DNA from: Acidimicrobiales bacterium
GTDB lineage: Bacteria; Actinomycetota; Acidimicrobiia; Acidimicrobiales; Aldehydirespiratoraceae
Assembly (NCBI GenBank): GCA_965116485.1
Contig: OZ220692.1
Coordinates: 283,152 to 347,151 of the forward strand
Direction: 5' to 3'
Length of the DNA: 64,000 nt
How positions within the stretch are numbered: the first letter of the stretch is position 1; every line of letters begins with the position of its first letter. The notes under the pieces were generated by a model, which saw nothing but the letters and a program-made list of their open reading frames with translations, did not search any database and had not been told where the DNA came from. This document shows, piece by piece, positions 8,659 through 55,216 of the stretch. A program made the position numbers and the translations under genes.

Positions 8659-8659
8659 G

Positions 8660-9822: not shown

Positions 9823-10517
9823 GCCGCACCTCCGCCCGAAGTCTCCGCATCAGCATCTGCGTCGGGCTCTGGGCCGGCAGCGACCGCAACGTCTGCAGAC
9901 TGGCCGAGTTCGGGTGCCCGCACGCCGTAACCGAGTTCACCGGACCAGTGCACGACGCCTTCGTAGCGATGGTCCCCAGACGGCGATGTGGCGCGCATCC
10001 ATCCGGAGGTCAGTTCGTCCTCCCCCTCACGCCAGTCCTCCCACGGAAGCTGCTGGGGTTTGCCGTCGTCACCGACGAGCAGTTCGTCGCGGGTGTAGAT
10101 CGCGTCGTTGCGATTGGTGAAGGAGAATTCGAACAGTTTCGATTCGGTGATGGCCTGGGTCGGGCACGCCTCCACGCACAGGTCGCAATGTATGCACCGC
10201 AGATAGTTGATCTCGTAGACATAGCCGAAGCGTTCACCGGGCGACGTCGGGTTGTCGGGGTCGTTGTCGGCGCCCCGCACATGGATGCACTTGGCTGGAC
10301 ACACGCCGGCGCACAGTTCACAACCGATGCACTTCTCCATTCCGTCCTCGTAACGGTTCAGGACGTGCCGCCCGTGCAGGCGCTCGACTTTGGGGCGCTT
10401 CTCGTCGGGTTGGCCGGCTTTGGCCATTCCTCCCCGATAGTCGCCGGTGACCCGCTCCTCGAAGAGCTTCTTGAAGGTGACCGCGAAGCCTTTGATGTAG
10501 TCGGTCAACTCAGCCAC
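9819..10517 (-). CDS. nuoI: NADH-quinone oxidoreductase subunit I (2x[4Fe-4S])
   Basis: CIGCELCAGVCP and CIHCDLCVEACP motifs. Gene order. Acidic C-terminal extension. Confidence 0.94.
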   Translation of the reverse strand: MAELTDYIKGFAVTFKKLFEERVTGDYRGGMAKAGQPDEKRPKVERLHGRHVLNRYEDGMEKCIGCELCAGVCPAKCIHVRGADNDPDNPTSPGERFGYVYEINYLRCIHCDLCVEACPTQAITESKLFEFSFTNRNDAIYTRDELLVGDDGKPQQLPWEDWREGEDELTSGWMRATSPSGDHRYEGVVHWSGELGYGVRAPELGQSADVAVAAGPEPDADADAETSGGGAA

Positions 10518-11853: not shown

Positions 11854-14369
11854 AACCGCTCCACCCTCACGTCGGTGACCACTGCGGAGGCGTCGATCAG
11901 TGGCCTGCAGTCTGCGCCGAGCGTCCGCCACGGCACGGCCGCGGAGCCGACCGGAACACCCGCGTCGATCTGCACAGGCATGTCGAGATGGCCTTTGGCC
12001 GATTCGACCCTCACCACGGTGCCCTCCTGGACCCCGATCTTGTCGAAGTCGACCGGATTCAGACGCAGTTCGAGAGACGAGGCATGCCCGCTGCTTGCCG
12101 GGCTGTGGCGGAGCGCGGTGCCGTCGTCGTACATCCGTCGGGTGGTCAACAGGCGCAACGAGTAACGGTCGTTCACCGGGCTGCTGGCCCCGGCCGGACC
12201 GGGCGGTGCGATATCGCCGTTGCCGGTGAGCAGTACGCCGTCCACCTGTGAGGTGTCGAGTGCTTCTTCGGTGAGCGGTGCGTGTACCTCCGAGACCGTG
12301 GCGAGTTCCGCCCGGATCGCGGCAACAGAGTCGAAGCCGAGGTCGGTGCCCAGCCGGGTGGCGATCTCCGCGGTGATCATCCAGTCGGGTCGCGAAACGC
12401 CGGCGGGTGTGACGATCTGCCCGCAGACGCTGACCCGACCCTCGAGGTTGGTGAAGGTTCCAGCCGATTCTGTGGGGCCCGCCGCGGCCAGGATCACATC
12501 GGCTTCGGCCATGATCGTGTCGTTGGGCAGCAGGTCGACGGCTATGACGGTCCCCGCGCCGGCCATTCCGTCACGCGCCAACTCGGCGTCTGGGAAGTCG
12601 TTGAGCGGATCAGCCCCCAGCAGGATGAGCGTGTCGATTTCGCCTGCTTTGGCAGCTCGCAGAATGCCTGCGGTGTCGTGACCGACGTTCCGGGGGACGC
12701 CCGGCCAGGCGTCGGCAAAGCGGTGTGCTCCACTCTCCAGCGTGGTGCGGCCCGGGAGCAGGCCGGGTGCGAGTCCGGCGTCGAGCGCTCCGTGGACGTT
12801 GCCCCGCCGCAGCGCAGACAGGAACGAGACGTCTTCGATCCCCGACAGGGCGACTGCAGCGTCTATCGTGGCGGCCGCCGATTCGCTGAGCGAGGACCGG
12901 CCCAGCACCACGGTCACAGGCCCTGAGATGTCTCTCGCCGCGCGTTGCGCTCGCCGGGCGTAGCCGGAGCCCTCAACACCACCCTCAGTACCTAGATCTG
13001 CGTCGAGGTCGTCCTCCGAGTCTGGGTTGGTGGCGGCGGCTACCAGGGCGGCGGCCAACTCGCCGACCTCGCCCGGTCGGGGGTGCAGCGAGTGCGTCGC
13101 GATGTTGCTGAGGCCGGTGCGCTTCGGGGTGAGCTCTATGAGGGTCGCCCCGTCCTGTACCACAGCATGGCGCAGACGCAGATACAAAGCTCCCAGATCT
13201 TCTTTGGGGTCGGGGCCGCACAGGATGATTGTCCCGCCGGCGCGGCAGGCATCGTCGATCGTGGCCCTCGGTAGACCGAGAACGACTTCGGCCGGCAGGC
13301 CGTCATCGAGTTGGGCGTCGACATGATCGGTGCCGATCACCCCCTTGGCCAGCTTGGCCCAGGCGTACTGGGCTTCGTTGTTCAAACGGGCGCCGCCGAT
13401 TACCGCCACCCGGCCGGGATCGACGCCGTCGAGCGCGGCCACTGCTCGTTCGAAGGCCACACCCCAGCCGACGGTCTCGAGTCGACCTTCGTTGCGCACC
13501 ATCGGCGCGGCCAGCCGGCTCTCGCTGTTGAGCGCCTCGAAGGCGAACCGCTCCTTGTCCGAGAGCCAGCCCCAGTTGACCGGATCGGCGTCGACGCCGA
13601 GGACTCTCAACACCTGATCACGCGACGACTGGACGGTGATGCGTGAGCCGACTGAATCGGTCCATGCGGTCGAAATCGTCTCTTCGAGATCCCAGGGGCG
13701 TGCTTTGAAACGGTAGGGCTTGGCGGTCAGCGCTCCGACGGGACAGATCTGCACGGTATTGCCCGAGAAGTAGGAGGCGAACGGCTCGTCGGGGAACGTG
13801 TTGACCTGAGTGCTCGAACCTCGATCCATGAAGTGGATCAGCGCGTCGCCTGCGACTTCGTCCGCGAAGCGGGTGCAGCGGTCGCAGAGGATGCAGCGCT
13901 CGCGGTCGAGGTAGACGGTGTCGCTGATCGGTATCGGCTTCTCGAAGTGCCGCTTCTCCTCGATGAAACGGGACTCTCCGGGACCGTAGGCCATCGTCTG
14001 GTCCTGCAACGGGCACTCGCCGCCCTTGTCGCAGACCGGGCAGTCGAGGGGATGGTTGATCAGCAGGAACTCGAGCACGCCGTCCTGAGCCTTCTTGGTG
14101 ACCTCGGACTCGGTCTCCACCACCATGTTGTCGCTCACGGGGACCATGCAGCTCGGTTGCAGGCCCGATCCTCGCCCGCTGTCCACCTCCACCAGACACA
14201 TCCGGCACATGCCGACCGGGTTCATTCTGGGGTGATGGCAGAACCGGGGGATGTAGGTGCCGTTGCGTTCGCAGGCGTCGATCAGCAGTTCGCCGGGGCG
14301 GGCCTCGATCTGTCGGCCGTTGACGGTGACGCTGACCGTCGAGGTGTCGGTGGGACGGGTATCGGTCAC
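11850..14369 (-). CDS. nuoG: NADH-quinone oxidoreductase subunit G
   Basis: N-terminal 2Fe-2S and 4Fe-4S cysteine motifs (IPRFCHHPRMNPVGMCRMCLVEV, HPLDCPVCDKGGECPLQD, CILCDRCTRF), then a molybdopterin-like domain. Confidence 0.94.
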   Translation of the reverse strand: MTDTRPTDTSTVSVTVNGRQIEARPGELLIDACERNGTYIPRFCHHPRMNPVGMCRMCLVEVDSGRGSGLQPSCMVPVSDNMVVETESEVTKKAQDGVLEFLLINHPLDCPVCDKGGECPLQDQTMAYGPGESRFIEEKRHFEKPIPISDTVYLDRERCILCDRCTRFADEVAGDALIHFMDRGSSTQVNTFPDEPFASYFSGNTVQICPVGALTAKPYRFKARPWDLEETISTAWTDSVGSRITVQSSRDQVLRVLGVDADPVNWGWLSDKERFAFEALNSESRLAAPMVRNEGRLETVGWGVAFERAVAALDGVDPGRVAVIGGARLNNEAQYAWAKLAKGVIGTDHVDAQLDDGLPAEVVLGLPRATIDDACRAGGTIILCGPDPKEDLGALYLRLRHAVVQDGATLIELTPKRTGLSNIATHSLHPRPGEVGELAAALVAAATNPDSEDDLDADLGTEGGVEGSGYARRAQRAARDISGPVTVVLGRSSLSESAAATIDAAVALSGIEDVSFLSALRRGNVHGALDAGLAPGLLPGRTTLESGAHRFADAWPGVPRNVGHDTAGILRAAKAGEIDTLILLGADPLNDFPDAELARDGMAGAGTVIAVDLLPNDTIMAEADVILAAAGPTESAGTFTNLEGRVSVCGQIVTPAGVSRPDWMITAEIATRLGTDLGFDSVAAIRAELATVSEVHAPLTEEALDTSQVDGVLLTGNGDIAPPGPAGASSPVNDRYSLRLLTTRRMYDDGTALRHSPASSGHASSLELRLNPVDFDKIGVQEGTVVRVESAKGHLDMPVQIDAGVPVGSAAVPWRTLGADCRPLIDASAVVTDVRVERL

Positions 14370-15787
14370 TGGAGCGCTCCGTCACCAAAAACCACTTGGG
14401 CACGTACAGGTATCGAGTCACGCCTGGTGATCTTTGCTTCGTATTCGTGGCGGAACCGGCGGATCGTCGACACGATCGGCGCGACCGACGAGGGGCCGAG
14501 CGGGCAGATCGTCGTCTGTTTCGGCGGGAAAGGCACCGCCTCGAGGCCCTCGGCCGGGTTGGCTGCGACCGGGTAGGGGCCGGGGCTGATGTTGTCGGCG
14601 ATATCGAGCAGCATGTCGATGTCGCTGTGCCTGCCCTCGCCGTCGAGGATCCGTTGCAGGATCCTCTCCTCCCAGGTGGTTCCCTCGCGGCAGGGCGTGC
14701 ACTTGCCGCACGACTCTCGGGCGAAGAACCTGACGACTCGCAGCGTGGCCTTCACCGCGTCGGTCGTTTCGTCCATCACCACGATGGCTCCGGATCCGAG
14801 CATCGATCCGGCGGCACCGACAGGCCCGGCTTCCAGGGGGAGATCGAGGTGTTCTTCGAAGAACCAGGGCGCCGAGCCCCCGCCCGGGATGAACATCTTC
14901 AGTTCATGGCCGTCGCGGATTCCCTGGCAGTAATTGTCCCCGTAGATCAGCTCTCTGAAAGTGGTGACACCGTGCTCGACTTCGTACACGCCCGGTCTGC
15001 GCACGTGGCCCGAGACTGCGAACAGTCGTGTTCCGGGCGACGCCTCGGAGCCGTAGCTCTTGTACTGCTCAGCGCCGTTGACCATCAGCCAGCCGATGTT
15101 GGCGAGCGTCTCGACGTTGTTGACGATGGTCGGCTGGCCGTACAGCCCGATCGCGGCCGGGAAGTAGGGGGGCTTGAGTCGGGGCATGCCCCGGTTGCCT
15201 TCGAGGCTCTCGATCAGCGCCGTCTCTTCGCCGACGATGTAGGCGCCGGCGCCCCAGGTGAGCACGATGTCCACCGAGAAGTCGGTGTCGAGGATGTTGC
15301 GGCCCACGTAGCCGGCCTCGTACGCCTCATTGAGTGCGTTCGCGATCCGTTCTTGGGCGAGTGCCATCTCGCCGCGCACATAGAGGAAGCACTGGGTCAA
15401 CCCGAGCGCATAGCAGGTGATGAGGCAACCTTCGATGAGCTGGTGCGGATCGCGCTCCATGAGCAGGCGGTCCTTGTATGTTCCGGGCTCACTCTCGTCG
15501 CCGTTGACGACCAGGTAGTAAGGGAACTTCTGAGGCGGCAGGAACCCCCATTTGACGCCCGCCGGGAATCCTGCGCCGCCGCGTCCCAGCAGGATGGCGC
15601 TGCGAACCTCGCCGTGGACGTCGGCGGGCCGTTTGGCGAGCGCGGCGCGCAGGCCCTCATATCCCCCGGTTGCCTCGAAGCGGCCCAGCGTGTACGAGTC
15701 TGCGTAGCTGAAGCGTTCGCTGACGATCTTGGGGCCCTCGTTGTCGACGTATCCCGGTGCGTGTTTGACGTAGTCGTTGGTCGCCAT
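14366..15787 (-). CDS. nuoF: NADH-quinone oxidoreductase subunit F
   Basis: GRGGAGFPAGVKW, NGDESEPGTYKDR, GAGAYIVGEETALIESLEG, ESCGKCTPCREG. Confidence 0.95.
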   Translation of the reverse strand: MATNDYVKHAPGYVDNEGPKIVSERFSYADSYTLGRFEATGGYEGLRAALAKRPADVHGEVRSAILLGRGGAGFPAGVKWGFLPPQKFPYYLVVNGDESEPGTYKDRLLMERDPHQLIEGCLITCYALGLTQCFLYVRGEMALAQERIANALNEAYEAGYVGRNILDTDFSVDIVLTWGAGAYIVGEETALIESLEGNRGMPRLKPPYFPAAIGLYGQPTIVNNVETLANIGWLMVNGAEQYKSYGSEASPGTRLFAVSGHVRRPGVYEVEHGVTTFRELIYGDNYCQGIRDGHELKMFIPGGGSAPWFFEEHLDLPLEAGPVGAAGSMLGSGAIVVMDETTDAVKATLRVVRFFARESCGKCTPCREGTTWEERILQRILDGEGRHSDIDMLLDIADNISPGPYPVAANPAEGLEAVPFPPKQTTICPLGPSSVAPIVSTIRRFRHEYEAKITRRDSIPVRAQVVFGDGALQ

Positions 15788-16425
15788 CAGCTCACCACCG
15801 AATCTGCCGCATCAGCTGCGGTCTCGTTGCGCTGGAGCCACACGGGCGCTTCACGGGCGGCCTCCGGGGGCACGATCCCCGCGAGCCGGTCTGACGGGAT
15901 GCGTTGGCGTACCCGGGCGAGCGTTCCGTGGGCGGGCAGGTCATCCACGCGTCCCGCGCGGATGTCGTCGATCATCTCGTCGAACTCGTCGTTGCTGACT
16001 CGCAGCCGGTAGCGATAGTTGACCTGCAGGCACGGCGCCTCGGTGCAGGCCGCGATGCACTCCACGTCTTCGAGGGTGAACATGCCGTCGTCTGTGGTTC
16101 CCCCGGTCTTCACGCCGAGTCGTTGCTGTGCGTGGTCGAGCAGTTCCTCGCCTCCAACCAGCATGCAGGAGATGTTGGTGCAGACGTTGATCAGATAGCT
16201 GCCGACCGGACCGAACTTGAACATCTCGTAGAAGCTGCCGGTGCCCTTCACTTCGGCGGGGGTGACGTCGCAGAGCTCCGCGATCTGACGCATGGCGTCG
16301 CTTGTGACCCAGCCGTGCTGTTCCTGAGCGAGGTGCAGGAGCGGGATGAGCGCTGAGCGCGGCACCGGGTAGCGCGAAACGATCTCGCGCGCGGTGTCGA
16401 GGTTTGCCGAGGTGAAGAAGCTCAT
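15787..16425 (-). CDS. nuoE: NADH-quinone oxidoreductase subunit E
   Basis: Thioredoxin-like 2Fe-2S subunit (LINVCTNISCML, VECIAACTEAP). Gene order. Confidence 0.93.
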   Translation of the reverse strand: MSFFTSANLDTAREIVSRYPVPRSALIPLLHLAQEQHGWVTSDAMRQIAELCDVTPAEVKGTGSFYEMFKFGPVGSYLINVCTNISCMLVGGEELLDHAQQRLGVKTGGTTDDGMFTLEDVECIAACTEAPCLQVNYRYRLRVSNDEFDEMIDDIRAGRVDDLPAHGTLARVRQRIPSDRLAGIVPPEAAREAPVWLQRNETAADAADSVVS

Positions 16426-17690
16426 CGGTCGACCTCACCAAGGATCGGATCGACGCTGGAGATGATGGCGACTCCGTCCGCGATCAGGCCGCCGCGCATG
16501 AGATGCGGCAGCGTCTGGAGGTTGATGAAGCTCGGTGGGCGGACCCGCATCCGGTAGGGGGTGGCGGTGCCGTCGCTGACGATGTAGACACCCAGTTCGC
16601 CCCGTGGCGATTCGACTGCCGCGTAAGCCTCGCCCTTGGGCACCTGGTAGCCCTCGGTGAAGATCTTGAAGTGGTGGATCAGCGCTTCCATCGACTCGTC
16701 GATGCGCAGCCGCGGCGGCGGGGTGACCTTCTTGTCCTGCAGGCGATAGTCGCCGCCGGGCATCCGGTCGATGATCTGGTCCACGATCTTCATCGATTCG
16801 CGGATCTCGTTGATGCGGATCGCGTAGCGGTCGTAGCAGTCCCCGTAGGTGCCGACGATGACATCGAAGTCGACTTCGTCGTAAGCGAGGTAGGGCTCGT
16901 CACGGCGCAGATCCCAGGCGTAGCCGGTGGAACGAAGCAGCGGACCCGTGGCCGACAATGCAATCGCCTCATCTGCGTTGATCGCCCCGACGCCTTGCAG
17001 GCGTTCGCGCCAGATGGGCTGACCGGTCATCAGCACTTCGTATTCGTCGAGCCTCGGCTCGATGAGTTCGAGCAGTTCGCGCAGGTCGTCCCGCCAACCG
17101 TCGTGGAGGTCTGCGGCGACACCGCCGGGCCGGATGTAGTTGTGGTTCATGCGCAGCCCGGTGACCTTCTCGAAAAAGCGCAGCACCTCCTCGCGTTCGC
17201 GCCAGCCGTAGATCATCATCGAGACCGCGCCGAGGTCGATGCCGTTGGTGGCCAGGAACAGCAGGTGCGACGACATGCGGTTGAGTTCGCACATCAGCAT
17301 CCGTATCCAGGTGGCGCGTTCGGGGACGTCGATGCCGAGGAGTTTCTCGGTGGTGAGCGAGAAGGCCAGCTCGGAGAAGAGCGGTGATGCGTAGTCCATG
17401 CGGGTCACGTTGGTGCAGCCCTGCAGGTAGGTGAGGTTCTCGCCCTGTTTCTCCATGCCCGTGTGGAGGTAGCCGATGACCGGTTTGGACCGCAGCACGG
17501 TTTCGCCTTCCATCTCCAGCATCAGGCGCAGCACGCCGTGGGTGGAGGGATGGGCGGGGCCCATGTTGAGCATGACCCGTTCGTCGTCGTCGGGATCGGC
17601 AGCGTCACCGCCGATGAGGGCGGCTTCGGCTTCGGAGAGCCGCAGCACCGCGGAGTCGTCGCCGCGTCGCATCACCCGTTCTGCGGTCAC
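16422..17690 (-). CDS. nuoD: NADH-quinone oxidoreductase subunit D
   Basis: LNMGPAHPSTHGVLRL, YLHTGMEKQGE, ends PILGEVDR. Confidence 0.95.
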   Translation of the reverse strand: MTAERVMRRGDDSAVLRLSEAEAALIGGDAADPDDDERVMLNMGPAHPSTHGVLRLMLEMEGETVLRSKPVIGYLHTGMEKQGENLTYLQGCTNVTRMDYASPLFSELAFSLTTEKLLGIDVPERATWIRMLMCELNRMSSHLLFLATNGIDLGAVSMMIYGWREREEVLRFFEKVTGLRMNHNYIRPGGVAADLHDGWRDDLRELLELIEPRLDEYEVLMTGQPIWRERLQGVGAINADEAIALSATGPLLRSTGYAWDLRRDEPYLAYDEVDFDVIVGTYGDCYDRYAIRINEIRESMKIVDQIIDRMPGGDYRLQDKKVTPPPRLRIDESMEALIHHFKIFTEGYQVPKGEAYAAVESPRGELGVYIVSDGTATPYRMRVRPPSFINLQTLPHLMRGGLIADGVAIISSVDPILGEVDR

Positions 17691-18241
17691 CGCGGAGCGC
17701 TCGCTTCGGAGAATTGAACCGGCACGTCACCGACCGCGAAGTCCTTGCGGAGAGGATGGCCGATCCAGTCCTCAGGCATCAGGATCCGGCTCATGTCGGG
17801 ATGATCGGCGAACTCGACGCCGAACATGTCGAACACCTCGCGTTCGAGGTTCTCGCATCCCGGCCACAGGTCGAACAGCGACGGAGCGGACGGTTCGGCG
17901 GCCGACACCTGGACTCGCAGTCCGAGCCGCTCCCGAGACGTGTGGTTGATGAGTTGAACGACCACTTCGAAACGTTCGGGTTTCACTTCGGCGGGCCGGA
18001 TCCGCGCTCCGGGGTAGTTGAGATAGTCGACGGCGGTGAGGTCGATGAGCTGGTCGAAGCCGTCGTCGCGAGCGGCGGTGGCGACTTCGAGATACTGCTC
18101 GACGGTCACGAACAGCACCGTCTGCGACGATATTTCCGACGCCAACGCCCCGTAACGCTTTGTTTCGGTCAGTTCGGGCTTGGTCACTTCCGGTTCGGTC
18201 ACTTCCGGTTCAGTCAGTTCCGGTTCAGTCAGTTCCGACAC
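17687..18241 (-). CDS. nuoC: NADH-quinone oxidoreductase subunit C with a pentapeptide-repeat N-terminus
   Basis: NuoC core (LIDLTAVDY, EREVFDMFGVEFADHPD, ILMPEDW). GTG start. N-terminus SELTE PELTE PEVTE PEVTK PELTE. Confidence 0.92.
   Translation of the reverse strand: MSELTEPELTEPEVTEPEVTKPELTETKRYGALASEISSQTVLFVTVEQYLEVATAARDDGFDQLIDLTAVDYLNYPGARIRPAEVKPERFEVVVQLINHTSRERLGLRVQVSAAEPSAPSLFDLWPGCENLEREVFDMFGVEFADHPDMSRILMPEDWIGHPLRKDFAVGDVPVQFSEASAPR
18167..18241. repeat. 15-bp tandem repeat (5 units) encoding the NuoC N-terminus
   Basis: + strand units GGTCACTTCCGGTTC and variants, contiguous and in frame. Confidence 0.9.
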
Positions 18242-18243
18242 GA

Positions 18244-18852
18244 TCAGCTCCGGATGGTCAGACCGGCAGTTTGCCCATCGCGTTGCTGGACCATGATCCC
18301 CGCTCCTGTGGCGGTCTCACCGGTGCCTGTGGTCTCCCGACGCTTCAACAGTTCGCCGGTGTGGATCTTGTCGTGGAGCGTCAGGATCGCATGCATCAGA
18401 GTCTCGGGTCCGGGGGGGCAGCCGGGGGCATAGACATCTACCGGCACGACCTGATCAATGCCCTGCACGATTGCGTAGTTGTTGAACATGCCTCCGCTGG
18501 ATGCGCAGACTCCCATCGAGATGACCCACTTGGGTTCCATCATCTGGTCGTACACCTGACGCAGCACCGGCGCCATCTTCTGGGACACGCGGCCGGCGAC
18601 GATCATCAGATCGGCTTGGCGCGGTGAAGCCCGGAACACCTCCATGCCGTAGCGGGCCAGGTCGTAGTGGGCTGCTCCCGCGGCCATCATCTCGAAGGCG
18701 CAGCATGCGAGTCCGAAAGTGGCGGGCCAGCAGCTGCGCATACGCGCCCAGTTGACCAGCGACTCGACGTTGCTGGTGATGAAATTGTGCTCGAGGCCGG
18801 CGAGACCGTCGTCGGCTATTTCACCGGCTTTGCCCAGACCGGGGATCCGCAT
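18244..18852 (-). CDS. nuoB: NADH-quinone oxidoreductase subunit B
   Basis: ORF 18244..19251 trimmed to the ATG at 18852, which overlaps the nuoA stop (TGATG). Motifs [27 protein letters not shown]. Confidence 0.93.
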
Positions 18853-19379
18853 CAGGCCGCTTCTCCTGCACCGTCGGCGTGGTGTGAGTCGGCGTGGTGT
18901 GCAGCGACGGCCGGCTCGAGCGCATCGGCCGGGCCTCGGTCTTCCAGTCCCACCCGACGCACCGTTGAGGTGATCGTCCTTTCGGCCGAGGTCGCGCCTG
19001 CAGGGCCGGCCACCTGTTTGAGCGGACCCCATTCGAGCGCTCCGTTGCCGATCAGGTACACGAACGACTCGAACACCGCGAACGAGAAGATCATGATCAG
19101 CACCAGCCCGAACAGGCCGAGTCCGCCCTGGGCGATCGCCCATGGATAGAAGAAGACGATCTCGATGTCGAACACGACGAAGATCATCGCCACCAGAAAG
19201 AAACGGACGGGGAAGCGTTCCGGAGTCTCCCGGGCCGGGATGATCCCGCATTCATAGGGTGCTCCCTTCGGGCCGGTCGGTTTGCGCGGCGCCAGCAGAC
19301 CTGATGCGACAAAACTTCCAGCAGCGAACAGGGCGGCCAGCACGAAGAGCGCAAACAGTGGCAGGTACTGACCGATCAT
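18852..19379 (-). CDS. nuoA: NADH-quinone oxidoreductase subunit A with a C-terminal extension
   Basis: 3-TM NuoA core ([39 protein letters not shown]), followed by about 50 extra residues. Confidence 0.9.
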
Positions 19380-19382: not shown

Positions 19383-20462
19383 CTATCCCGACCCTTTGTT
19401 GAACTCGGCTACGCGGGCCATCACTACTTTGTCCCGTTCGTGGAGCATGTAGCACAGAGCCAGGAAGATCAAGAGCGACCCGAGCGTCACCAGCGCCGGG
19501 ACCAGCCGGAGGTTGCCGAGGTTGCGGATCATGACCACCGAGACGACCGGTTCGTCGGGGTTGGCGATCGGGCGCTTGGGGGCCTGGCCGGGAAGGTTGT
19601 CGATCGACTCGGGCAGAACCGCCTGCATCTGCACGATTCCGTAGCGGGTCGGATGCTTGAGGGTCAGCGCGGTGCGAATCTGGGTTTCGATCCGGTCCCA
19701 ACGGCTCGGGTCCGAGGGCAGGCCGCGCTTGCCGCCGATGGTGAACGAGTCGAGGATCTTGAACTCGTTCTGGGAACTGAACGAGAAGTCGCCGCTGGCG
19801 AGCAGCATGGCGATTGCCGATGCCTGGGCTTCGCCTGCCTGGGCTGTCGACAGCAGCGTCCAGCCGCCCAGGGAATCGTCGTCCTGGTTGATCAAGCTCG
19901 GGGCGACGGCGGCCAGCTCGCTCAGTGTCGTCGCCCGGTTCTTGGCGTATTCCTCTTCGGCCAGCGCCTCTTGTTCTTGGCTTGTCAGGCCAGCGGTCGC
20001 ATCAGCCGTGAGGTCAGCGACGGTGACGACCCCGAACTCTTCGTTCGCCACTTCGATCTCGGCCCGCAGCTCGGGGTCCGTCACGCTGCCGAGCCCCGCG
20101 TGGGCTTCGACCACCAGATCGTGCGCGGTCGGCAGATTCTCGGATCTGAGCAACTCGGCTTCGTCGAGCGCGGCGAAGTTCAAATGCCCCTCGCCTCCGA
20201 ACCCCTCGACTATCTCCACTTGCTCCCAGCGGGGTGCGTCGCCGCGGTAGCCGATGCCGTAGATCCACCAGATCGCCGCCATGATCACCATCCAGCCGAA
20301 GAACCCGGCGAGCGCGATGAGCGTGCCCAGGCGTATCCCGGAGTTGGTGGCGAGCAGGAGCCATACCGAACCCATGAGCACCACGACACCGGTGAGAACC
20401 GCCAGGAAGCCCCGGATCTCCGGGTCCCAGGCGAGGCCTGCGATGAGATCAACCGCCTCCAT
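19383..20462 (-). CDS. unassigned membrane protein between the cytochrome c gene and nuoA
   Basis: 359 aa. Three N-terminal TM helices and one C-terminal TM flank an acidic soluble domain. ATG overlaps the upstream stop (TGATG) and the stop lies 3 nt before nuoA. No family recognised. Confidence 0.7.
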   Translation of the reverse strand: MEAVDLIAGLAWDPEIRGFLAVLTGVVVLMGSVWLLLATNSGIRLGTLIALAGFFGWMVIMAAIWWIYGIGYRGDAPRWEQVEIVEGFGGEGHLNFAALDEAELLRSENLPTAHDLVVEAHAGLGSVTDPELRAEIEVANEEFGVVTVADLTADATAGLTSQEQEALAEEEYAKNRATTLSELAAVAPSLINQDDDSLGGWTLLSTAQAGEAQASAIAMLLASGDFSFSSQNEFKILDSFTIGGKRGLPSDPSRWDRIETQIRTALTLKHPTRYGIVQMQAVLPESIDNLPGQAPKRPIANPDEPVVSVVMIRNLGNLRLVPALVTLGSLLIFLALCYMLHERDKVVMARVAEFNKGSG

Positions 20463-21781
20463 CAGAGGTTCCTCTCGTAGGCGACGATGGCGTCGATCTG
20501 TTCCGCTGTGAGCGTCGCCGGGTAGGGGATTTCGAGGTCATTTGCGATACCGGGCCCGATGGCGTCGCTCTCGACTCGGGGTCCGAAGCCTGGCATCTGT
20601 CCGTTGCCGCCCGATCCGCCTCGTCCGTATGTCGATCCGATCGTCTGACCCTGCTCGATGAACTCGGCGTGGCTCCTCGACGACTCGAATTGGGCCAGGG
20701 TCGAGCCGCCCTGCAGGTTGGGCCCGAAGAACCCGCCGGCCTGGTTGAGCCCGTCTTTGAAGTCTTCGATGGGCTCGTCTCGCCCGTTGACGCGCATGGT
20801 CATCTCCTCGGCTCCACCGAAGCTGAATCCATAGGTGTGGCAGCGTGCGCAGCTGTAGGTTCCGGCGGTTCCGGGGTTGGCGAACAGCAGTTCACCGTAT
20901 GTCTTGTATTGCTCCCAGGCGGCCGGATCGAGTCCCTCACCGCTGACCAGAATGTCGAGTGCCGCCCATCTCAGGTCCTCCGTGTTCTGGGCCAGTGCCA
21001 GCGAAGCGTCCTGTGTGATTGCCACTTGCCGGGCTTCTTCGGCCACCGCTCGGGCGTCTTTTGTCCATTGTTCCGCGTCCTGCTCGGTCGCCTCCTCGCC
21101 CGAAGCGGCGAGATGGGCACGTACCGCTTGCAGCACTCCCGCTTCGACTTGATCCGCGATGCGTTCCGGGGTGATCTGGATGCTCCGCAGGTAGAACATC
21201 ACCTCTTCGAGTTGTTGATCAGTGAGCGGACCGCCACCGGGGCCGCCCCACGCGGGCATCACTCCGTTGCGGCCGTAGTTGAGCGTGTGCAGTACCTCAT
21301 CTTCTGAGAAGCGCGAGAACACCGTGTTGAGCGCGGGAGCGTCCCAGGAGACTTGGGCGATGAACTCTCCCGATTCGGAAGTCAGTGCCACGCTGGTCGA
21401 TCCGCCGGTCCCGTCGGCGCCGTGGCAGGTGACGCACTGGGCGCCTTCGAGGTAGATCTCCTCGCCGCGGTTGGTGAATATGCGGGCGGTGTCGACGTCT
21501 CGTCCGGCTTGACGCCCCGGTTCACCGAGCCAGTACAGAGGGAGCGACACGCCGATGATTGTGAGCATCACCAGGTTGGCGCCGAGCGCGAAGTCGAGGC
21601 GCTTGCCTTCGAGGTCTTCGTCGCGGACGTCGTCGCGGCGATTCGCGGCGAGTTCGATCTCGGAGCCGACCTCGCCCTTGGCGGCTCGGATGTTGAAGAA
21701 CAGATAGACGAGTCCACCGATGAAGACGATCGCCAAAATGACGAAGCCGATGGTTCGCTGGGTGGAAGCGGCGAGCAGCAT
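20462..21781 (-). CDS. membrane-anchored diheme cytochrome c (QcrC-like)
   Basis: N-terminal TM helix. Two CXXCH motifs (CVTCH, CARCH). Directly downstream of the Rieske gene. Confidence 0.85.
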   Translation of the reverse strand: MLLAASTQRTIGFVILAIVFIGGLVYLFFNIRAAKGEVGSEIELAANRRDDVRDEDLEGKRLDFALGANLVMLTIIGVSLPLYWLGEPGRQAGRDVDTARIFTNRGEEIYLEGAQCVTCHGADGTGGSTSVALTSESGEFIAQVSWDAPALNTVFSRFSEDEVLHTLNYGRNGVMPAWGGPGGGPLTDQQLEEVMFYLRSIQITPERIADQVEAGVLQAVRAHLAASGEEATEQDAEQWTKDARAVAEEARQVAITQDASLALAQNTEDLRWAALDILVSGEGLDPAAWEQYKTYGELLFANPGTAGTYSCARCHTYGFSFGGAEEMTMRVNGRDEPIEDFKDGLNQAGGFFGPNLQGGSTLAQFESSRSHAEFIEQGQTIGSTYGRGGSGGNGQMPGFGPRVESDAIGPGIANDLEIPYPATLTAEQIDAIVAYERNL

Positions 21782-21799
21782 AAGGACGCAGAGAGGTTA

Positions 21800-22684
21800 C
21801 TAGTGGCTGGCTTGACCGATGCAGTTGGGCCCTTCGGCTTCCTGCCCGGTGGTGTTGATCCCGATGGCGGGGCCTTGGATGATTGTTCCGGTGTCGACGG
21901 TGAGAGAGCCGTCGACACCGATGGACATGGCGAAGCGGTCCATGCCCCGGGGTGCCGGGCCGCCGCGTTTCTCACCCACCTGGTTGTATTGAGAGCCGTG
22001 GCACGGGCACTCGAACCATTGCGAGGTGCCGCACTCAGGTACCCGGCAACCGAGGTGCGGACATTTCTGGTAGAGCGCCACAACTCCGGCGTCGAGTCCG
22101 AGGGTGAACCCGGCTTCCATTCCGGCCAGTTCAGGACCCGAGTACACGGCTCGGGCCTTCTCGACGGCGCCGTTGGGATATTCGGTGATCCACATGCGGC
22201 CGTCGGCCCGGTACAGGAACCCGTTGTTGTTGCGGATTTCGGCGAGGATGTCGGAGACGAGCCCGACTTTGATGGCCGACCCGAATCCGCCGCCGATCTG
22301 CGGCCAGAGGAAGGCGATGCAGGCGACCCCGAAGCCCGACAGGCCGAGGCCGAACATCAACACGATCGACCGGTTGAAGAACTGGCGGCGGGTCACTCCG
22401 AGGGTCTCGGGGTCCGGCGGCACGTAGGGGGCCGGCGGAGCGGGCAGGCGACTTGCCAGCACGAGTTCTCTGCTCGCGGCTTCCCGTTGAGCGACCACGG
22501 CCTTCTCGACCTCACGCCCGGTGAGCTCGTTGGCGGGGTCGAGCGAGTCGCTGTCTTTGTCGCGTTTTCGGGTCTCGCGTGACAGCATGCCGACGGCTTC
22601 GGAGTTCTGCCTGCCGCGCATGGCCGCGAAAGTTGAGAGCACGACTAGCGCGCCCAACACGATGATGGCGATCGTGATCGTCAT
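21800..22684 (-). CDS. Rieske [2Fe-2S] subunit of a Rieske/cytochrome b complex
   Basis: CPHLGCRV and CPCHGSQY boxes. N-terminal TM segments. RRQFF twin-arginine-like motif. Confidence 0.92.
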   Translation of the reverse strand: MTITIAIIVLGALVVLSTFAAMRGRQNSEAVGMLSRETRKRDKDSDSLDPANELTGREVEKAVVAQREAASRELVLASRLPAPPAPYVPPDPETLGVTRRQFFNRSIVLMFGLGLSGFGVACIAFLWPQIGGGFGSAIKVGLVSDILAEIRNNNGFLYRADGRMWITEYPNGAVEKARAVYSGPELAGMEAGFTLGLDAGVVALYQKCPHLGCRVPECGTSQWFECPCHGSQYNQVGEKRGGPAPRGMDRFAMSIGVDGSLTVDTGTIIQGPAIGINTTGQEAEGPNCIGQASH

Positions 22685-22866
22685 GGGGTGCTCGCAGGGG
22701 CGTGTGGTGCGGTTGTTGCAGGCGGCTCAATCAACAGAGTGTTGGACATCAGAGTGTTGGACATCAGAGTGTTGGACATCAGAGTGTTGGACATCAGAGT
22801 GTTGGACAACAGAGTGTTGGACATCGGAGTGTTGGACATCAGAGTTCGATCACAGTTCTTGATCAC
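22681..22866 (-). CDS. repeat-encoded 61-codon bridging ORF ((M/L)SNT(L/P) pentapeptide repeats); translation unproven
   Basis: The GTG start shares GTGA with the stop of the subunit IV gene. Its TGA shares ATGA with the Rieske ATG. The body is the 15-bp minisatellite. Confidence 0.35.
   Translation of the reverse strand: MIKNCDRTLMSNTPMSNTLLSNTLMSNTLMSNTLMSNTLMSNTLLIEPPATTAPHAPASTP
22735..22846. repeat. 15-bp minisatellite (7 full units plus a partial) between the subunit IV and Rieske genes
   Basis: + strand unit CAGAGTGTTGGACAT at 22735, 22750, 22765, 22780, 22795, 22810 and 22825. Followed by GATCACAGTTC twice (22848, 22861). Confidence 0.95.
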
Positions 22867-23654
22867 AGTTCGAAGAAGAGGCCGGCTTCCCAGGGGAAGA
22901 CGAAGTTGAATCCGGGTCCCCGGAAGAACGAGCCGATCATCACCAGCACCGCCCAGAACATGAGGTGGATGGTCATCAGCGAGATGGCGAACTTGCGGTC
23001 CTCGGGTTTGTTGGACGGGTTCTTGTCGATGTAGGGGGCGAGAATGAGCAGGAAGATGCCGATGCCGGGGATGGTCACACCCGCGACCATCGGATGGAAC
23101 ATCGTCAGCAGCTCCTGCAGGCCCAGGAAGTACCAGGGTGCTTTCGACGGGTTGGGCGTCTCGTTGAAGTTGGCGAGCTCCAGCAGCGGCGCGTTCACGA
23201 AGATCGAGAAGATGGTTGAGAAGGCCGTGATGAACAGGGCTGCCGCGAATTCGACCACGAGCAGATGCGGCCAGACATGCACTTTGTCCTGGGGCATCGA
23301 TTTGACGTCCTGGATCGAACCGGACTTGACGACTGTCAGCAGCCGCTGAGTGTGCCCGCCCGGCCCGGTCGCCGCCGGCGCGGCGGCTGCGGTTGCGGCG
23401 GCTGCCGCGGCGGCGGGTGCAGCGGGAGTTGCCGCTGCGGGTTCGTCGGTCTGCGGTCCAGCTGCGGCTTTGGCCGCCCTGGAGCGCTCGAGCAGATGCG
23501 CCGGAATCTTCGAGGCCGCTTCCTTCTGTGCTTCGGTCATCTCGGGCTCACCGCTTGCTGCAGCGTCGCCGCCGGCCGCGGCTGCTTTGGCAGCCTCAGC
23601 TTTGGCACGGGCCTCTTCTGCTCGTTTGCGAAGGTGTTCGGGGACTTCAACCAT
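22863..23654 (-). CDS. cytochrome b6f subunit IV-like protein (C-terminal half of a split cytochrome b) with an Ala-rich N-terminal extension
   Basis: PetD-like core (KAPWYFLGLQELL in place of PEWYF, 3 TM). About 110 aa of N-terminal extension starting MVEVPEHLRKRAEEARA. GGAGA lies 7 nt before the ATG. Confidence 0.85.
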   Translation of the reverse strand: MVEVPEHLRKRAEEARAKAEAAKAAAAGGDAAASGEPEMTEAQKEAASKIPAHLLERSRAAKAAAGPQTDEPAAATPAAPAAAAAAATAAAAPAATGPGGHTQRLLTVVKSGSIQDVKSMPQDKVHVWPHLLVVEFAAALFITAFSTIFSIFVNAPLLELANFNETPNPSKAPWYFLGLQELLTMFHPMVAGVTIPGIGIFLLILAPYIDKNPSNKPEDRKFAISLMTIHLMFWAVLVMIGSFFRGPGFNFVFPWEAGLFFEL

Positions 23655-23673
23655 CTTCTGATCTCCTCACGAC

Positions 23674-24471
23674 CTACAGCGGGCCCGAGATGCCGCCGTC
23701 TTTTCGCACCCGCCAGAAGTGGATCGCCATGAAGATGACGGCCACGAACGGGAGCATGAGGACGTGCAACACGTACCATCGCAACAACGTGTCTGTTCCG
23801 ATATCGAACCCTCCGAGCAGCACGAAACGAACTTGGTCACCGAACACGGGCGTGTAGCCCATCATGTTGGTTCCCACAGTCACAGCCCAGAGGGCAAGCT
23901 GGTCCCAGGGCAGCAGATAGCCGGTGAACGACAGCAGCAGCGTCAACGTGAGCAGGATAACGCCGATCACCCAGTTGAACTCGCGCGGCGGTTTGTAGGC
24001 CCCGTGGTAGAAGACCCGTGCCATGTGCAGGAACACGGTCAAAACCATGAGGTGCGCGGCCCATCGGTGCATGTTGCGCACCAGCAGTCCGAAGGTGACG
24101 GAGGTCTGCAGGGTGTAGATGTCGTCCCAGGCCGCGGCTGCGGTCGGGCGATAGAAGAACATCAGGAAGATCCCGGTGATGGTCAGCAGGATGAACAGGA
24201 AGAAGGTGAGCCCGCCGAGGCAGAGGGTGTAGGAGACCTTCACGGCGTGACGCTTCACCTTCACCGGGTGGAGGTGGTACATCACGCTGTTCATGATCAC
24301 GTAGCTGCGGTTGCGGGGGCTGTCGGTGTAGCCCTTGCGGAATATCGACCCGGGCCTGAAGATCGAGCTCCAGGCCTGGCTGCCTTGTATGTCGTTGCCA
24401 AGCTTCGACATCTGTGCCGACAACCGCTCCTTGAGCGGTGGTTTGATGTCGTCGTCGGTGTCAATTGCCAT
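23674..24471 (-). CDS. cytochrome b6-type cytochrome b (N-terminal four-helix half)
   Basis: ORF 23674..24612 trimmed to the ATG at 24471 (AGGAGAG upstream). Collinear with plastid cytochrome b6 as recalled from memory: YTLCLGG (b6 YCLGG), RNMHRWAAHLMV, GYLLPWDQLALWA, ending VRKDGGISGPL as b6 does. Confidence 0.9.
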   Translation of the reverse strand: MAIDTDDDIKPPLKERLSAQMSKLGNDIQGSQAWSSIFRPGSIFRKGYTDSPRNRSYVIMNSVMYHLHPVKVKRHAVKVSYTLCLGGLTFFLFILLTITGIFLMFFYRPTAAAAWDDIYTLQTSVTFGLLVRNMHRWAAHLMVLTVFLHMARVFYHGAYKPPREFNWVIGVILLTLTLLLSFTGYLLPWDQLALWAVTVGTNMMGYTPVFGDQVRFVLLGGFDIGTDTLLRWYVLHVLMLPFVAVIFMAIHFWRVRKDGGISGPL

Positions 24472-24500
24472 GTGTTCAGTCTCTCCTGCGTTGCCCGGTT

Positions 24501-24917
24501 CTAGCCGAGGCGCATTCCGTATCCGTAGCCGTGGGAATTGGTTCGCTGGTGGGCGTCGCCTTCTACCGAGGGATCTCCGATTTTGCCCATGATGATGACG
24601 CCGGTCGGGCAACGGTCGACGCAGAGCGCGCAGCGTGTGCAGACGTCGTCGTCGATCGTGAAGATCACATGGTCGCTCGGGTCGAGGCCCGGCTGCTCGG
24701 TGCCGATCGCTTCATCGATGGCGTCCGGACGCACCATGTGGATGCACTTCCATGGGCAGATGTCTACACAGCCTTCGCACATGATGCACTCGGACTGGTC
24801 GATGTGGATGAACTGCTTGGGCTTGACCGCCGCGCTGAGCCAGGCGGCATCGACTTCCTGCAGCACGTAGTCGTCGCGGAACTCCGGCATCGGCGGGTTC
24901 GCGTCGGTTGTGGTCAC
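24501..24917 (-). CDS. 2x[4Fe-4S] ferredoxin-like protein
   Basis: ORF 24501..25415 trimmed to the GTG at 24917, which overlaps the upstream stop (GTGA). Motifs CIMCEGCVDICP and CTRCALCVDRCP. Confidence 0.8.
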   Translation of the reverse strand: MTTTDANPPMPEFRDDYVLQEVDAAWLSAAVKPKQFIHIDQSECIMCEGCVDICPWKCIHMVRPDAIDEAIGTEQPGLDPSDHVIFTIDDDVCTRCALCVDRCPTGVIIMGKIGDPSVEGDAHQRTNSHGYGYGMRLG

Positions 24918-25366
24918 AGCGACGAACCCTCCTTCACCAGCGGACGACCGAAGGCCGAACGTGCGGGGGCGGTCTCTGCGGGCTTGGAGCCTCTCGACTG
25001 CCAGACCTTCCAGAGCCAGACGTTGCCGACCAGAACGATGCCGTAGATCAGCACCGCGATGATGTGCTCGATGTGCAGGTAGTTGATCGTCAACGGGTTC
25101 CAGCCGCCGGCGGGTTGCGGCTTGAGGAAACCACCCCAGCCGATGAAGTACTTGTCGCTGCGCCAGGCCAGTTCGTTCTCCGCCCAGGTGAGCCATTGAT
25201 GGGGCACGACACCGTAGGCCATGAACAGCAGGAAGAACACGAACATCGCGCCGAACATCGCTTCGCCCCAGGTGTGGGGAGCGTCCACGGGGCGCCGCTT
25301 CGCGTACGCGAGGATTCCACCGGTGCCAGCGAGAGTAACGATGACAGACAGGGTTAGGGCAACCAT
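24914..25366 (-). CDS. small 3-TM membrane protein, first gene of the respiratory cluster
   Basis: ORF 24914..25738 trimmed to the ATG at 25366 (GGAGCGGAG upstream). Hydrophobic segments MVALTLSVIVTLAGTGGILAY, MFGAMFVFFLLFMAYGVV and IIAVLIYGIVLVGNVWLW. No family recognised. Confidence 0.65.
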   Translation of the reverse strand: MVALTLSVIVTLAGTGGILAYAKRRPVDAPHTWGEAMFGAMFVFFLLFMAYGVVPHQWLTWAENELAWRSDKYFIGWGGFLKPQPAGGWNPLTINYLHIEHIIAVLIYGIVLVGNVWLWKVWQSRGSKPAETAPARSAFGRPLVKEGSSL

Positions 25367-25587
25367 CTCCGCTCCGTTGGAGTCTTGACTCTGAGTACTT
25401 CGTGAATCCTCGCACAAGTGTAGTCCCGAGCGACGAAACCGCTCAGTTGGGCGCACGGTTCTTCTGAGATTCCGCTCGGGTTTGTCGAATCTCGGGGCAA
25501 TCGCTCTATCCTTCCCCGAAGTTCCTCTAGAGTTTGACGCGCCGAGCGGCAAACCCTTCTCAGTTCTGACCCTCACCGGAGACGACG

Positions 25588-26436
25588 TTGGTCGAAGTAC
25601 CCGAGCACCTTCTACAGAGGTCCGCCGAGGCACGCGCTCGCCTCTCCGGTGAACCCGCCGCCGCCGACGCCCAGACCTCACCCGCAGGCGCGCCGGCCGC
25701 CGCCTCCCCCGCTGTTCCTGCGGCACCCGCCGCCCCACCGGTTCCAGCCGAACCGGTGGTCGAAGTTCCGGTACCCGTCCCGGACTATGTGACCGCAGCG
25801 CTGAGTCGCAAGACGATCCCCTATTGGGTCATGCCGGTCCTGTTGTTCCTGCCGATCTGGGCGATCTACTACGTCGGTTACCTTGAACGGCCTCCCGCAG
25901 ATCCCGAGGGTCTGTTGTTCGAGGGTGGCGAGGTGTATGCCGAGGTGTGTGCGTCGTGCCACGGCGGTACCGGCTCGGGTGGCACGGGCCGCCAGCTCAA
26001 CGGCGGAGAAGTGCTGCTGACGTTCCCAAGCGACGCGGCCGGTTACGACGGTCTTGCCGGCCATATCGCCTGGGTCGCGAACGGTTCGGACCAGACCGAG
26101 ATCACCGAGGGCTCCGTCTACGGCGATCCGGCCCGAGTCGGGGCCGACAGCCCCCGTACGGTCGGCAGCTTCGGCGCGGCGATGGGGAATTTCACCGAGT
26201 CTCTGACTGTGGAGGAATTGGCCGCGGTCGTCTATTACGAACGTGTCGCTCACGGTGATCTCGACAACGAGACTGCCGCCCTGGAGCTCGAGGTGCTCGA
26301 GGAGTTCGTCCACATCAACGATGCCGCCGGTGTCGGCAACCTGGCTCTGGGCGTGTCTGTGGCCGAGGTCAGCGCCCAACTCGACGAGGCTCGTGCGGTT
26401 GTCGCGGCTGCGCACGACGAGGTCGCCGCCGGTTAA
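25588..26436 (+). CDS. membrane-anchored monoheme cytochrome c
   Basis: TTG start 5 nt after GGAGA. N-terminus MVEVPEHLLQRSAEARA, Ala/Pro linker, one TM helix, CASCH heme motif. Confidence 0.8.
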   Translation: MVEVPEHLLQRSAEARARLSGEPAAADAQTSPAGAPAAASPAVPAAPAAPPVPAEPVVEVPVPVPDYVTAALSRKTIPYWVMPVLLFLPIWAIYYVGYLERPPADPEGLLFEGGEVYAEVCASCHGGTGSGGTGRQLNGGEVLLTFPSDAAGYDGLAGHIAWVANGSDQTEITEGSVYGDPARVGADSPRTVGSFGAAMGNFTESLTVEELAAVVYYERVAHGDLDNETAALELEVLEEFVHINDAAGVGNLALGVSVAEVSAQLDEARAVVAAAHDEVAAG

Positions 26437-55117: not shown

Positions 55118-55216
55118 GCGAACACTCGCACGCGCCCGCGCGCCGCTCGTTCCGACTCGATCAGATTCGCGGCGTTTCACCTGATGCACATTGCGGTTCA
55201 CCGGTCTTCTCTGTCG

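Follow-up and report, generated by a model that had tools for sequence, protein, structure and literature searches.

The window analysed here is a stretch of 64,000 nucleotides from an Acidimicrobiales bacterium (contig OZ220692.1, positions 283,152 to 347,151). It carries on its minus strand a cassette of seven genes, which encode a protein with three transmembrane (TM) segments (the 3-TM protein), a 2x[4Fe-4S] ferredoxin, a cytochrome b6-like protein, a subunit IV-like protein, a Rieske protein, a diheme cytochrome c and a membrane protein of 359 amino acids (aa), and which runs into the nuo genes of Complex I. The cassette is a conserved evolutionary unit, whereas its linkage to nuo is lineage-specific, because the seven genes stay together where nuo is absent and where the flanking genes change. 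Overall, the best explanation, which we believe about as firmly as we doubt it, is that the cassette would encode one b6-type menaquinol:cytochrome c oxidoreductase with a ferredoxin wire on the cytoplasmic side (n-side) of the membrane. That the ferredoxin is a stoichiometric redox subunit on this side appears likely, its physical association with the complex being suggested by the conservation of the operon and by its predicted cytoplasmic location. The original prediction on this DNA had listed seven minus-strand open reading frames (ORFs) between positions 19383 and 25366, and all seven were found where it had placed them.

Relatives of the ferredoxin were sought in one genome per GTDB species. 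At least 588 species have one, and the best 80, all of them from Acidimicrobiia, were examined. Gene order in these loci was read by tblastn with the window proteins, as far as the contigs reach, and it is kept in 80/80. The common order is a divergent cytochrome c gene, followed on the other strand by the genes for the 3-TM protein, ferredoxin, b6, subunit IV, Rieske protein, diheme cytochrome c and 359-aa protein and then by nuoA, B, C and D. A second set, of 80 metagenome loci, was anchored on cytochrome b, and its counts are given over evaluable loci. Here the ferredoxin gene was found directly upstream of cytochrome b in 67/67 loci and the 3-TM gene directly upstream of the ferredoxin gene in 60/60. 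Of the remaining genes, subunit IV was found in 56/57, the Rieske protein in 50/50, the downstream cytochrome c in 42/42 and the 359-aa gene in 34/34. Recurring in about 160 independent loci, the arrangement is beyond chance.

Within the Acidimicrobiales, synteny alone is weak evidence, since the whole region is syntenic there, including nuo and the divergent cytochrome c gene. It could be argued that the seven genes are unrelated neighbours, held together by general synteny in a slowly rearranging lineage. This we find hardly credible, as deep relatives change every flanking gene while the seven genes stay contiguous and co-directional, as start and stop codons overlap within the cassette, and as the 67/67 and 60/60 co-occurrence was obtained with cytochrome b as the anchor. 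The deep relatives are represented by seven contigs, with ferredoxins 34–51% identical to that of the window, and in six of the seven the ferredoxin gene lies directly upstream of a split cytochrome b. The complete seven-gene set, with no nuo genes nearby, is found in loci L083, L084, L085 and L087 (ferredoxin 34–49% identical); L082 ends after the Rieske gene, and L086 keeps nuoA-D downstream. Profiles of the 3-TM protein matched ORFs at the equivalent position in 4/4 of the deep loci tested, and profiles of the 359-aa protein did so in three. In L082–L085 and L087 the genes beside the cassette are those of cytochrome c maturation (ResB/CcsA or Ccm) or of heme-copper oxidases, and other flanking genes among L083, L084, L085 and L087 are hemL/hemB or a Rex-like gene. 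The synteny of the ferredoxin and 3-TM genes with Rieske/cytochrome b genes, on which the original prediction had staked its case beforehand, is kept in every evaluable locus except L088, which is discussed below. Heme biosynthesis genes are likewise found beside the cassette in L001, L083 and L085; in the window, hemL (Aminotran_3) and hemB (ALAD) are located at 30987–33292 on the minus strand, approximately 6 kb upstream of the cassette.

The cytochrome b is split as in the b6f complex, as had been proposed from the reading of the ORFs: the Cytochrome_B and Cytochrom_B_C domains are encoded by separate ORFs, and the ...GGISGPL end of the first aligns with the C terminus of b6. The split falls after helix D, so that the first protein has four helices and subunit IV has three. 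The best matches of the cytochrome b in PDB are b6f chains (E about 5e-48). Cys84, in the sequence YTLCLGG, had been assigned to the cysteine that binds heme ci, and HMMER alignments did place it on b6 Cys35 in 6rqf, 1q90, 2zt9 and 7r0w; the CxGG motif is kept in 80/80 relatives. His135, His149, His236 and His251 align with the four heme-ligand histidines of b6 on helices B and D, as expected for hemes bL and bH. The n-side N-terminal segment of cytochrome b6 (residues 33–92, window 24196–24375) is basic and invariant across deep divergence, with the consensus W.SIFRPGS....GY....R.R......N...YHLHP.KVKRH. Its YHLHP histidine motif occurs 162 times among 168 loci. In AlphaFold3 models of anammox complexes of the same type, an N-terminal histidine of cytochrome b binds an extra heme b at the dimer interface. 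It is a speculation from this analogy that the three histidines of the YHLHP region may match the modelled one.

Subunit IV has the Qo motif APWY (KAPWYFLGLQE), which was found in 75/75 relatives. It also has an N-terminal extension of about 125 aa with two copies of (V/I)P(E/A)HL..R(S/A). The peptide that opens the protein (23507–23645, minus strand) reads (T/V)E(I/V)PEHL(L/R)(K/Q)R(S/A)..(A/R)RA, and the second copy there is IPAHLLERS. The divergent monoheme cytochrome c opens with the same peptide, VPEHLL.RS (25597–25640, plus strand), and this sharing was observed in 80/81 loci, at the same positions in L001–L081. A PDB search with the shared peptide returned no match. The peptide may be a cytoplasmic docking peptide. 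The divergent cytochrome c has its CxxCH at residue 121, and its gene is found at the same position in most Acidimicrobiia loci.

The Rieske protein has CPHLGC as box I and CPCHGSQY, with a Ser-Tyr (S-Y) pair, as box II. The pair is present in about 70 relatives, in agreement with the Mid+ to high-potential Rieske proteins of the APWY clade. According to the published signature rule, an S-Y Rieske protein has a midpoint potential (Em) above 260 mV, and Rieske proteins of the APWY clade are always Mid+ to high (PMC4122944). The Rieske protein of the cassette is thus predicted to be of high potential, with an Em above 260 mV. The closest solved Rieske domains are 9rk3 and 9rk4 from Kuenenia. Residues 1–128 comprise an extra N-terminal TM segment, a cytoplasmic loop of approximately 75 aa, the twin-arginine sequence TRRQFFN at residue 98 and then a second TM segment, a layout that resembles the dual Sec/Tat topology of actinobacterial Rieske proteins. 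The presumed electron acceptor of the Rieske protein is the diheme cytochrome c, which has two N-terminal TM segments and CxxCH motifs at residues 116 and 311.

The ferredoxin contains two CxxCxxCxxxCP motifs, at residues 44–55 and 93–104, and matches Pfam Fer4, Fer4_7 and Fer4_21 above their cut-offs, as is typical of a bacterial-type 2x[4Fe-4S] protein. It is acidic (pI 4.45) and has neither a signal peptide nor a TM segment. As it has no hydrophobic segment and this low pI, it is expected to stay in the cytoplasm, and an n-side location is a reasonable prediction. A total of 2114 homologues was found, the top 120 of which are at least 80% identical. The closest, at 95–98% identity, are from metagenome-assembled genomes of Candidatus Aldehydirespiratoraceae (Acidimicrobiia, Acidimicrobiales). 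The N- and C-terminal extensions outside the cluster core are also conserved in the alignment of homologues. Across the Acidimicrobiia loci, identity is 83–98% for the ferredoxin, 76–98% for cytochrome b6, 69–97% for NuoB and 71–93% for NuoD; the ferredoxin is thus conserved like cytochrome b6 and more than NuoB or NuoD, which fits a core subunit. An all-against-library search showed that the ferredoxin family is small and that its divergent full-length members, where named, are from Actinomycetota. The best family-level matches are NuoI/NdhI-type subunits, and a comparison with PDB returned generic polyferredoxin and NuoI-like matches, nothing more specific.

The two orphan membrane proteins have no family match in Pfam or NCBIfam. 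The 3-TM protein has 687 homologues, all of about 150 aa, and the 359-aa protein has 674 of constant length, all named hypothetical. Going by these many constant-length homologues, both ORFs are real genes. The C-terminal tail of the 3-TM protein carries a conserved FGRPLV(K/R)EG in the alignment of homologues and is predicted to be cytoplasmic from the positive-inside rule. The AlphaFold2 (AF2) model of this protein has three helices (pLDDT 81). In the 359-aa protein, a domain of about 250 aa lies between two N-terminal TM segments and one C-terminal TM segment, and the AF2 model has a pLDDT of 76. A search of both models against PDB gave no fold match at E <= 0.001, so neither orphan resembles a known supernumerary subunit of the solved bc1, b6f or bcc complexes.

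We propose the following scheme for the complex. Quinol would be oxidised at the APWY Qo site, one electron passing to the predicted high-potential Rieske cluster and further to the diheme cytochrome c, and the other crossing the membrane by way of hemes bL and bH to a predicted, covalently bound heme ci. The 2x[4Fe-4S] ferredoxin would be a stoichiometric cytoplasmic subunit, held by the cytoplasmic tail of the 3-TM protein and the invariant n-side N-terminal segment of cytochrome b6; that these two form its docking surfaces is plausible, and is no more than what we infer from conservation and predicted topology. The two clusters of the ferredoxin would then wire the bH/ci pair to a diffusible redox partner in the cytoplasm, reversibly in principle. 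The 359-aa protein would be an accessory subunit on the p-side, and the ferredoxin, 3-TM and 359-aa proteins together would be three lineage-specific subunits. As the ferredoxin has no flavin or nucleotide domain, it cannot be the terminal enzyme; formal analogues are PsaC, for electron exit, and NdhI of photosynthetic NDH-1, for entry. Actinobacteria generally use menaquinones, and Ilumatobacter, of the same class, encodes menaquinone biosynthesis.

If the ferredoxin is taken to be a subunit, we lean slightly to electron exit, falling just short of an even balance, with entry somewhat less probable and other roles unlikely. Exit is favoured by the analogy to the anammox complexes and by the combination of an S-Y Rieske protein with menaquinone. 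The authors of the anammox work argued that the large gap between quinol and Rieske potentials results in very low b-heme potentials, which allows a low-potential electron to leave on the n-side. In its strongest form this would make the complex an electron-bifurcating menaquinol:cytochrome c / ferredoxin oxidoreductase of aerobic Actinomycetota, a specific proposal that we consider unlikely. The strongly exergonic transfer from menaquinol through the high-potential Rieske protein and cytochrome c to the oxidase would here push the second electron by way of bL, bH, ci and the 2x[4Fe-4S] clusters to a low-potential cytoplasmic acceptor.

Entry, on the other hand, is favoured by the fact that the complex appears to be the main complex III of aerobes and as such depends on a functioning Q cycle. 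Reduced soluble ferredoxin or another low-potential donor in the cytoplasm would deliver electrons through the clusters to heme ci/bH, from where menaquinone would be reduced at the Qi site. The complex would then be a hard-wired ferredoxin:quinone reductase, comparable to the activity long proposed for cyclic flow through b6f and to NdhI of photosynthetic NDH-1. With typical [4Fe-4S] potentials, transfer to heme ci/bH and to menaquinone is downhill. The NuoI/NdhI-type family matches of the ferredoxin and the polyferredoxins among its PDB matches agree with this, and an undisturbed Q cycle would suit what appears to be the main complex III, flanked as it is by oxidase, cytochrome c maturation and nuo genes. 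We nevertheless regard entry as the overall account as doubtful, since no ferredoxin-reducing enzyme was linked to the cassette in any locus examined, since the anammox authors argue that the inward direction wastes energy, and since the surplus driving force of an S-Y Rieske protein with menaquinone would be left unexplained.

Some observations weigh against the wire and in particular against exit. The S-Y Rieske protein occurs throughout the APWY clade, also in members that have no iron-sulfur (FeS) partner, such as Geobacter Ext, so it is no specific argument for exit. If the complex is the sole complex III, an aerobe would find it difficult to keep losing every second electron by stoichiometric exit. 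In L088, the contig shows no cytochrome b next to the ferredoxin homologue (672–1085, 49% identical over its full length), and a 511-aa protein without a family stands in the place of cytochrome b; this ferredoxin could be a paralogue, or the locus could be rearranged. Finally, conserved operon membership fits an assembly factor as well.

Such a role in biogenesis or regulation would have the ferredoxin and the 3-TM protein take part in the attachment of heme ci on the n-side, in the manner of CCB proteins, in the delivery of FeS clusters or heme, or in redox sensing. The two are the first cistrons and always co-inherited with a CxGG cytochrome b, and heme-biosynthesis and cytochrome c maturation genes are often their neighbours. 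The chloroplast CCB1 is also a small multi-TM protein, and we know of no heme-ci maturation system outside cyanobacteria and plastids. However, the 3-TM protein has no Pfam match, CCB families included, and to our knowledge Firmicutes attach heme ci without such genes. Moreover, assembly factors usually evolve faster than core subunits, and the very high conservation of the ferredoxin, equal to that of cytochrome b6 and above that of NuoB or NuoD, disfavours a role of this kind, which we strongly doubt.

The linkage to Complex I suggests a further possibility, namely that a supercomplex of complexes I and III has the ferredoxin as a shared n-side subunit or as a docking element. nuoA starts directly after the 359-aa gene, the gap being 3 nt with no excess of terminator-like matches, and nuoA to nuoN are on the same strand. 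Within the reach of the contigs, the nuo genes are fused to the cassette in each of the 80 Acidimicrobiia genome loci, and the ferredoxin resembles NuoI at the family level. Yet the cassette, ferredoxin included, is unchanged where nuo is absent or divergent, which disfavours such a bridge, and the nuo operon has its own NuoI. A C-terminal GY.YG.R motif of the ferredoxin was considered as a possible mark of nuo adjacency and rejected, as it is present with or without adjacent nuo and equally so in lineages without nuo linkage. We give a bridge to Complex I very little chance. The original prediction of extra subunits that would connect a b6-type complex on the n-side was thus partly borne out, in that synteny, the missing export signal and conservation support an n-side role, whereas the coupling to Complex I that it had suggested is lineage-specific rather than general.

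Among the loci anchored on cytochrome b, nuoA is downstream of the cassette in 24 and absent in 8, and L094, L121, L128 and L129 (a single one of which enters the strict tally) have it upstream in divergent orientation. In these four, nuoA/nuoB are located 2.2–6 kb upstream on the opposite strand, so nuo and the cassette stay close even when they are not co-directional. In Acidimicrobiales, complexes I and III are probably co-expressed as a result of the fusion to nuo, which stands outside the mechanism proposed here. In the window, Pfam matches identified NuoA, B, E, F, G, H, I, J, L, M and N; nuoC and nuoD were assigned by position and by tblastn at the L001 genes with Pfam Complex1_30kDa and Complex1_49kDa, so that the assignment covers all of the 14 genes but nuoK. 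The nuoA ORF is 175 aa long, with a C-terminal extension of about 55 aa past the Oxidored_q4 domain, and the longest nuoB ORF (18244–19251) overlaps it, so that the start codon of nuoB is ambiguous. The coordinates of the cassette and of the features next to it are collected in Table 1.

Table 1. The seven-gene cassette and adjoining features, in window positions
Feature	Position	Strand	Remarks
3-TM protein	24914..25366	-	first cistron, orphan, 150 aa
2x[4Fe-4S] ferredoxin	24501..24917	-	138 aa; Pfam Fer4 families
cytochrome b6-like protein	23674..24471	-	265 aa, four helices; Pfam Cytochrome_B, E 4e-46
subunit IV-like protein	22863..23654	-	263 aa; Pfam Cytochrom_B_C
15-bp tandem repeat, 7.4 copies	22735..22845	.	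TRF score 208; in the gap between subunit IV and Rieske genes
Rieske [2Fe-2S] protein	21800..22684	-	294 aa; Pfam Rieske
membrane-anchored diheme cytochrome c	20462..21781	-	439 aa; Pfam Cytochrom_C
orphan 359-aa membrane protein	19383..20462	-	last cistron of the cassette
nuoA-N, 14-subunit NADH:quinone oxidoreductase	2829..19379	-	Pfam, position, tblastn
divergent membrane-anchored monoheme cytochrome c	25588..26436	+	282 aa; Pfam Cytochrom_C
intergenic region of 221 nt that separates the 3-TM gene from the divergent cytochrome c gene	25367..25587	.	likely promoter region of the cassette

The junctions of the cassette measure, in order, -4, 29, 19, 178, 18, -1 and 3 nt. The first is a GTGA in which the GTG start of the ferredoxin gene overlaps the stop of the 3-TM gene, as originally described, and the sizes given for the other junctions also held. 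This was not the case for the ORF (22681–22866) said to bridge the 178-nt gap. It sits over a tandem repeat with the unit GATGTCCAACACTCT on the coding strand, which has a perfect 15-bp period with 95% matches, and it is spurious, since the period of the repeat is divisible by three. The closest relatives, L002–L004, have gaps of 52–95 nt between the subunit IV and Rieske genes and lack the repeat, which is specific to this genome, and the bridging ORF was rejected as a cistron. The RNA of the repeat is less structured than shuffled sequence (z = +2.0), and no terminator-like fold was found in it.

The intergenic region upstream of the 3-TM gene was taken to hold the promoter, as it is the sole long non-coding stretch upstream of the cassette. 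A scan of the window for the sigma-70 consensus gave no matches, and is uninformative for this phylum. Terminator-like matches were at background (7 against 5.1 +/- 2.3 expected), all inside genes, and an Rfam scan of the window returned two tRNAs and nothing else. Elsewhere, the stretch 51630–56000 has a G+C content of 0.555–0.569, against about 0.64 in the rest of the window, and encodes an Eco57I-type restriction-modification methylase together with ORFs without a family. It is probably a horizontally acquired island.

Ever since the first b6f structures, it has been debated whether ferredoxin and heme ci exchange electrons on the n-side of b6-type complexes, and the question is hard to test in chloroplasts because the interaction is transient. 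The cassette offers a system in which a ferredoxin-like subunit is genetically hard-wired to a CxGG b6, accompanied by two orphan membrane proteins, and which is tractable for cryo-electron microscopy, electron paramagnetic resonance and enzymology of the n-side FeS branch. Its carriers are a large and widespread group of aerobic bacteria, with the ferredoxin in at least 588 GTDB species representatives, and include at least one cultured member, Salinilacustrithrix flava (L063). The complex looks like the complex III of Acidimicrobiia and of some deeper Actinomycetota, and the picture in which actinobacterial complex III is an unsplit QcrCAB does not hold for Acidimicrobiia. If the n-side wire is real, the n-side design that has been proposed for anammox bacteria is more than a curiosity of anaerobes. 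Bifurcation, if true, would provide a respiratory-chain source of reduced ferredoxin, in the first b6-type complex with a ferredoxin permanently docked at heme ci.

The complex is assigned, at the level of sequence motifs, to the APWY clade, or subfamily G, of Rieske/cytochrome b complexes. This placement builds on the motifs, the score against the ExtP profile and the published split cytochrome b of Ilumatobacter. The APWY clade was described from Deltaproteobacteria, Chloroflexi, Nitrospirales, Planctomycetes and Actinobacteria (Kao & Hunte 2014, PMC4122944). It corresponds to subfamily G of Dibrova et al., which includes planctomycete operons with large NAD(P)/FeS oxidoreductase genes, and also takes in Geobacter ExtP and the anammox complexes with n-side FeS/NAD(P) subunits. 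The split cytochromes b of Ilumatobacter, which bear the CxGG motif, and of Rubrobacteridae have been placed in the APWY or the PEWY-cyt c clade (Kao & Hunte 2014, PMC4122944). A split b6-like gene in Acidimicrobiia is not new, since the Ilumatobacter case has already been published (PMC4122944), and n-side FeS partners of the same cytochrome b subfamily have already been proposed for anammox bacteria (PMC5600118, PMC12954380). No description of the ferredoxin-b6 module of Acidimicrobiia was found in the searchable literature. As far as that literature goes, the small dedicated ferredoxin and the two orphan membrane proteins as invariant members are new, and so are the breadth across Acidimicrobiia and deeper Actinomycetota and the operon fusion with nuo.

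Among known systems of this family, the Geobacter ExtO/ExtP/ExtQ proteins share the APWY type with the cassette. The cytochrome b scores 308.8 bits against NCBIfam cytb_ExtP, above the cut-off of 290, and subunit IV matches ExtQ weakly. The remaining Ext proteins (ExtH, I, J, K, L, M, N and S, among them rhodanese, porin and multiheme cytochromes) are not in the cassette, and no genes of an ext operon of the extHIJKLMNOPQS type were found in the window or in any relative. An identity as Ext was rejected, and the name ExtP does not transfer, as the Ext cluster is without a ferredoxin (PMC5877670). Automated annotation based on ExtP ("selenite/tellurite reduction") would probably misname the cytochrome b across Acidimicrobiia. 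QcrCAB was likewise rejected, as the NCBIfam exception models gave scores far below their cut-offs (QcrA 19 vs 275, QcrB 116 vs 500, QcrC 16 vs 200) and the cytochrome b is split. The QcrCAB of Mycobacterium and Corynebacterium is found in the same phylum and resembles the cassette in its diheme cytochrome c, the acceptor of the Rieske protein, and in a Rieske protein that has additional TM helices at its N terminus, together with an internal twin-arginine motif. Its cytochrome b, however, is unsplit and lacks the CxGG cysteine, and it has no ferredoxin subunit.

The b6c complexes of Firmicutes (Bacillus QcrABC and the heliobacterial PetCBD-diheme c) share with the cassette a split cytochrome b, covalent heme ci (predicted for the cassette), menaquinone and a Gram-positive host, and in heliobacteria also the diheme cytochrome c. 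The Bacillus complex has a fusion of subunit IV and cytochrome c. The Qo motif is mainly PDWY in Firmicutes and PEWY in heliobacteria, whereas it is APWY in the cassette, and the Rieske proteins of PDWY complexes are of low to Mid- potential (PMC4122944). Ferredoxin or 3-TM genes have not been reported for the b6c complexes. The b6f complex (PetB/PetD/PetC) has the same split point, the ...GISGPL end, CxGG at Cys35, the four heme histidines and an S-Y Rieske protein. It differs from the cassette in having PEWY rather than APWY at Qo, cytochrome f, PetG/L/M/N and plastoquinone in place of menaquinone, and in lacking the N-terminal extensions of the b6 and subunit IV of the cassette. Furthermore, the interaction of b6f with ferredoxin is hypothetical and transient, whereas the cassette has a ferredoxin gene in its operon.

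The closest functional analogues are the anammox complexes Kuste4569-4574 and Kustd1480-1485 of Kuenenia stuttgartiensis, which the literature places in the same APWY/subfamily G grouping. Their host is a menaquinone (MK-7) organism, and their Rieske proteins are of high potential, with measured Em of +303 and +335 mV; 9rk3 and 9rk4 come from these two complexes. An n-side FeS partner has been proposed to take the low-potential electron (PMC12954380, PMC5600118). This partner is a large FAD/NAD(P) oxidoreductase in anammox bacteria, whereas the cassette has a 138-aa 2x[4Fe-4S] protein without a catalytic domain, together with the 3-TM protein. The anammox subunit IV has five helices, unlike that of the cassette, and on the p-side it is multiheme or HAO-like cytochromes that serve as partners, in place of which the cassette has a diheme cytochrome c and the orphan 359-aa protein. 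Finally, in the anaerobic anammox organism these complexes are additional ones, whereas the complex of the cassette looks like the main complex III of aerobes.

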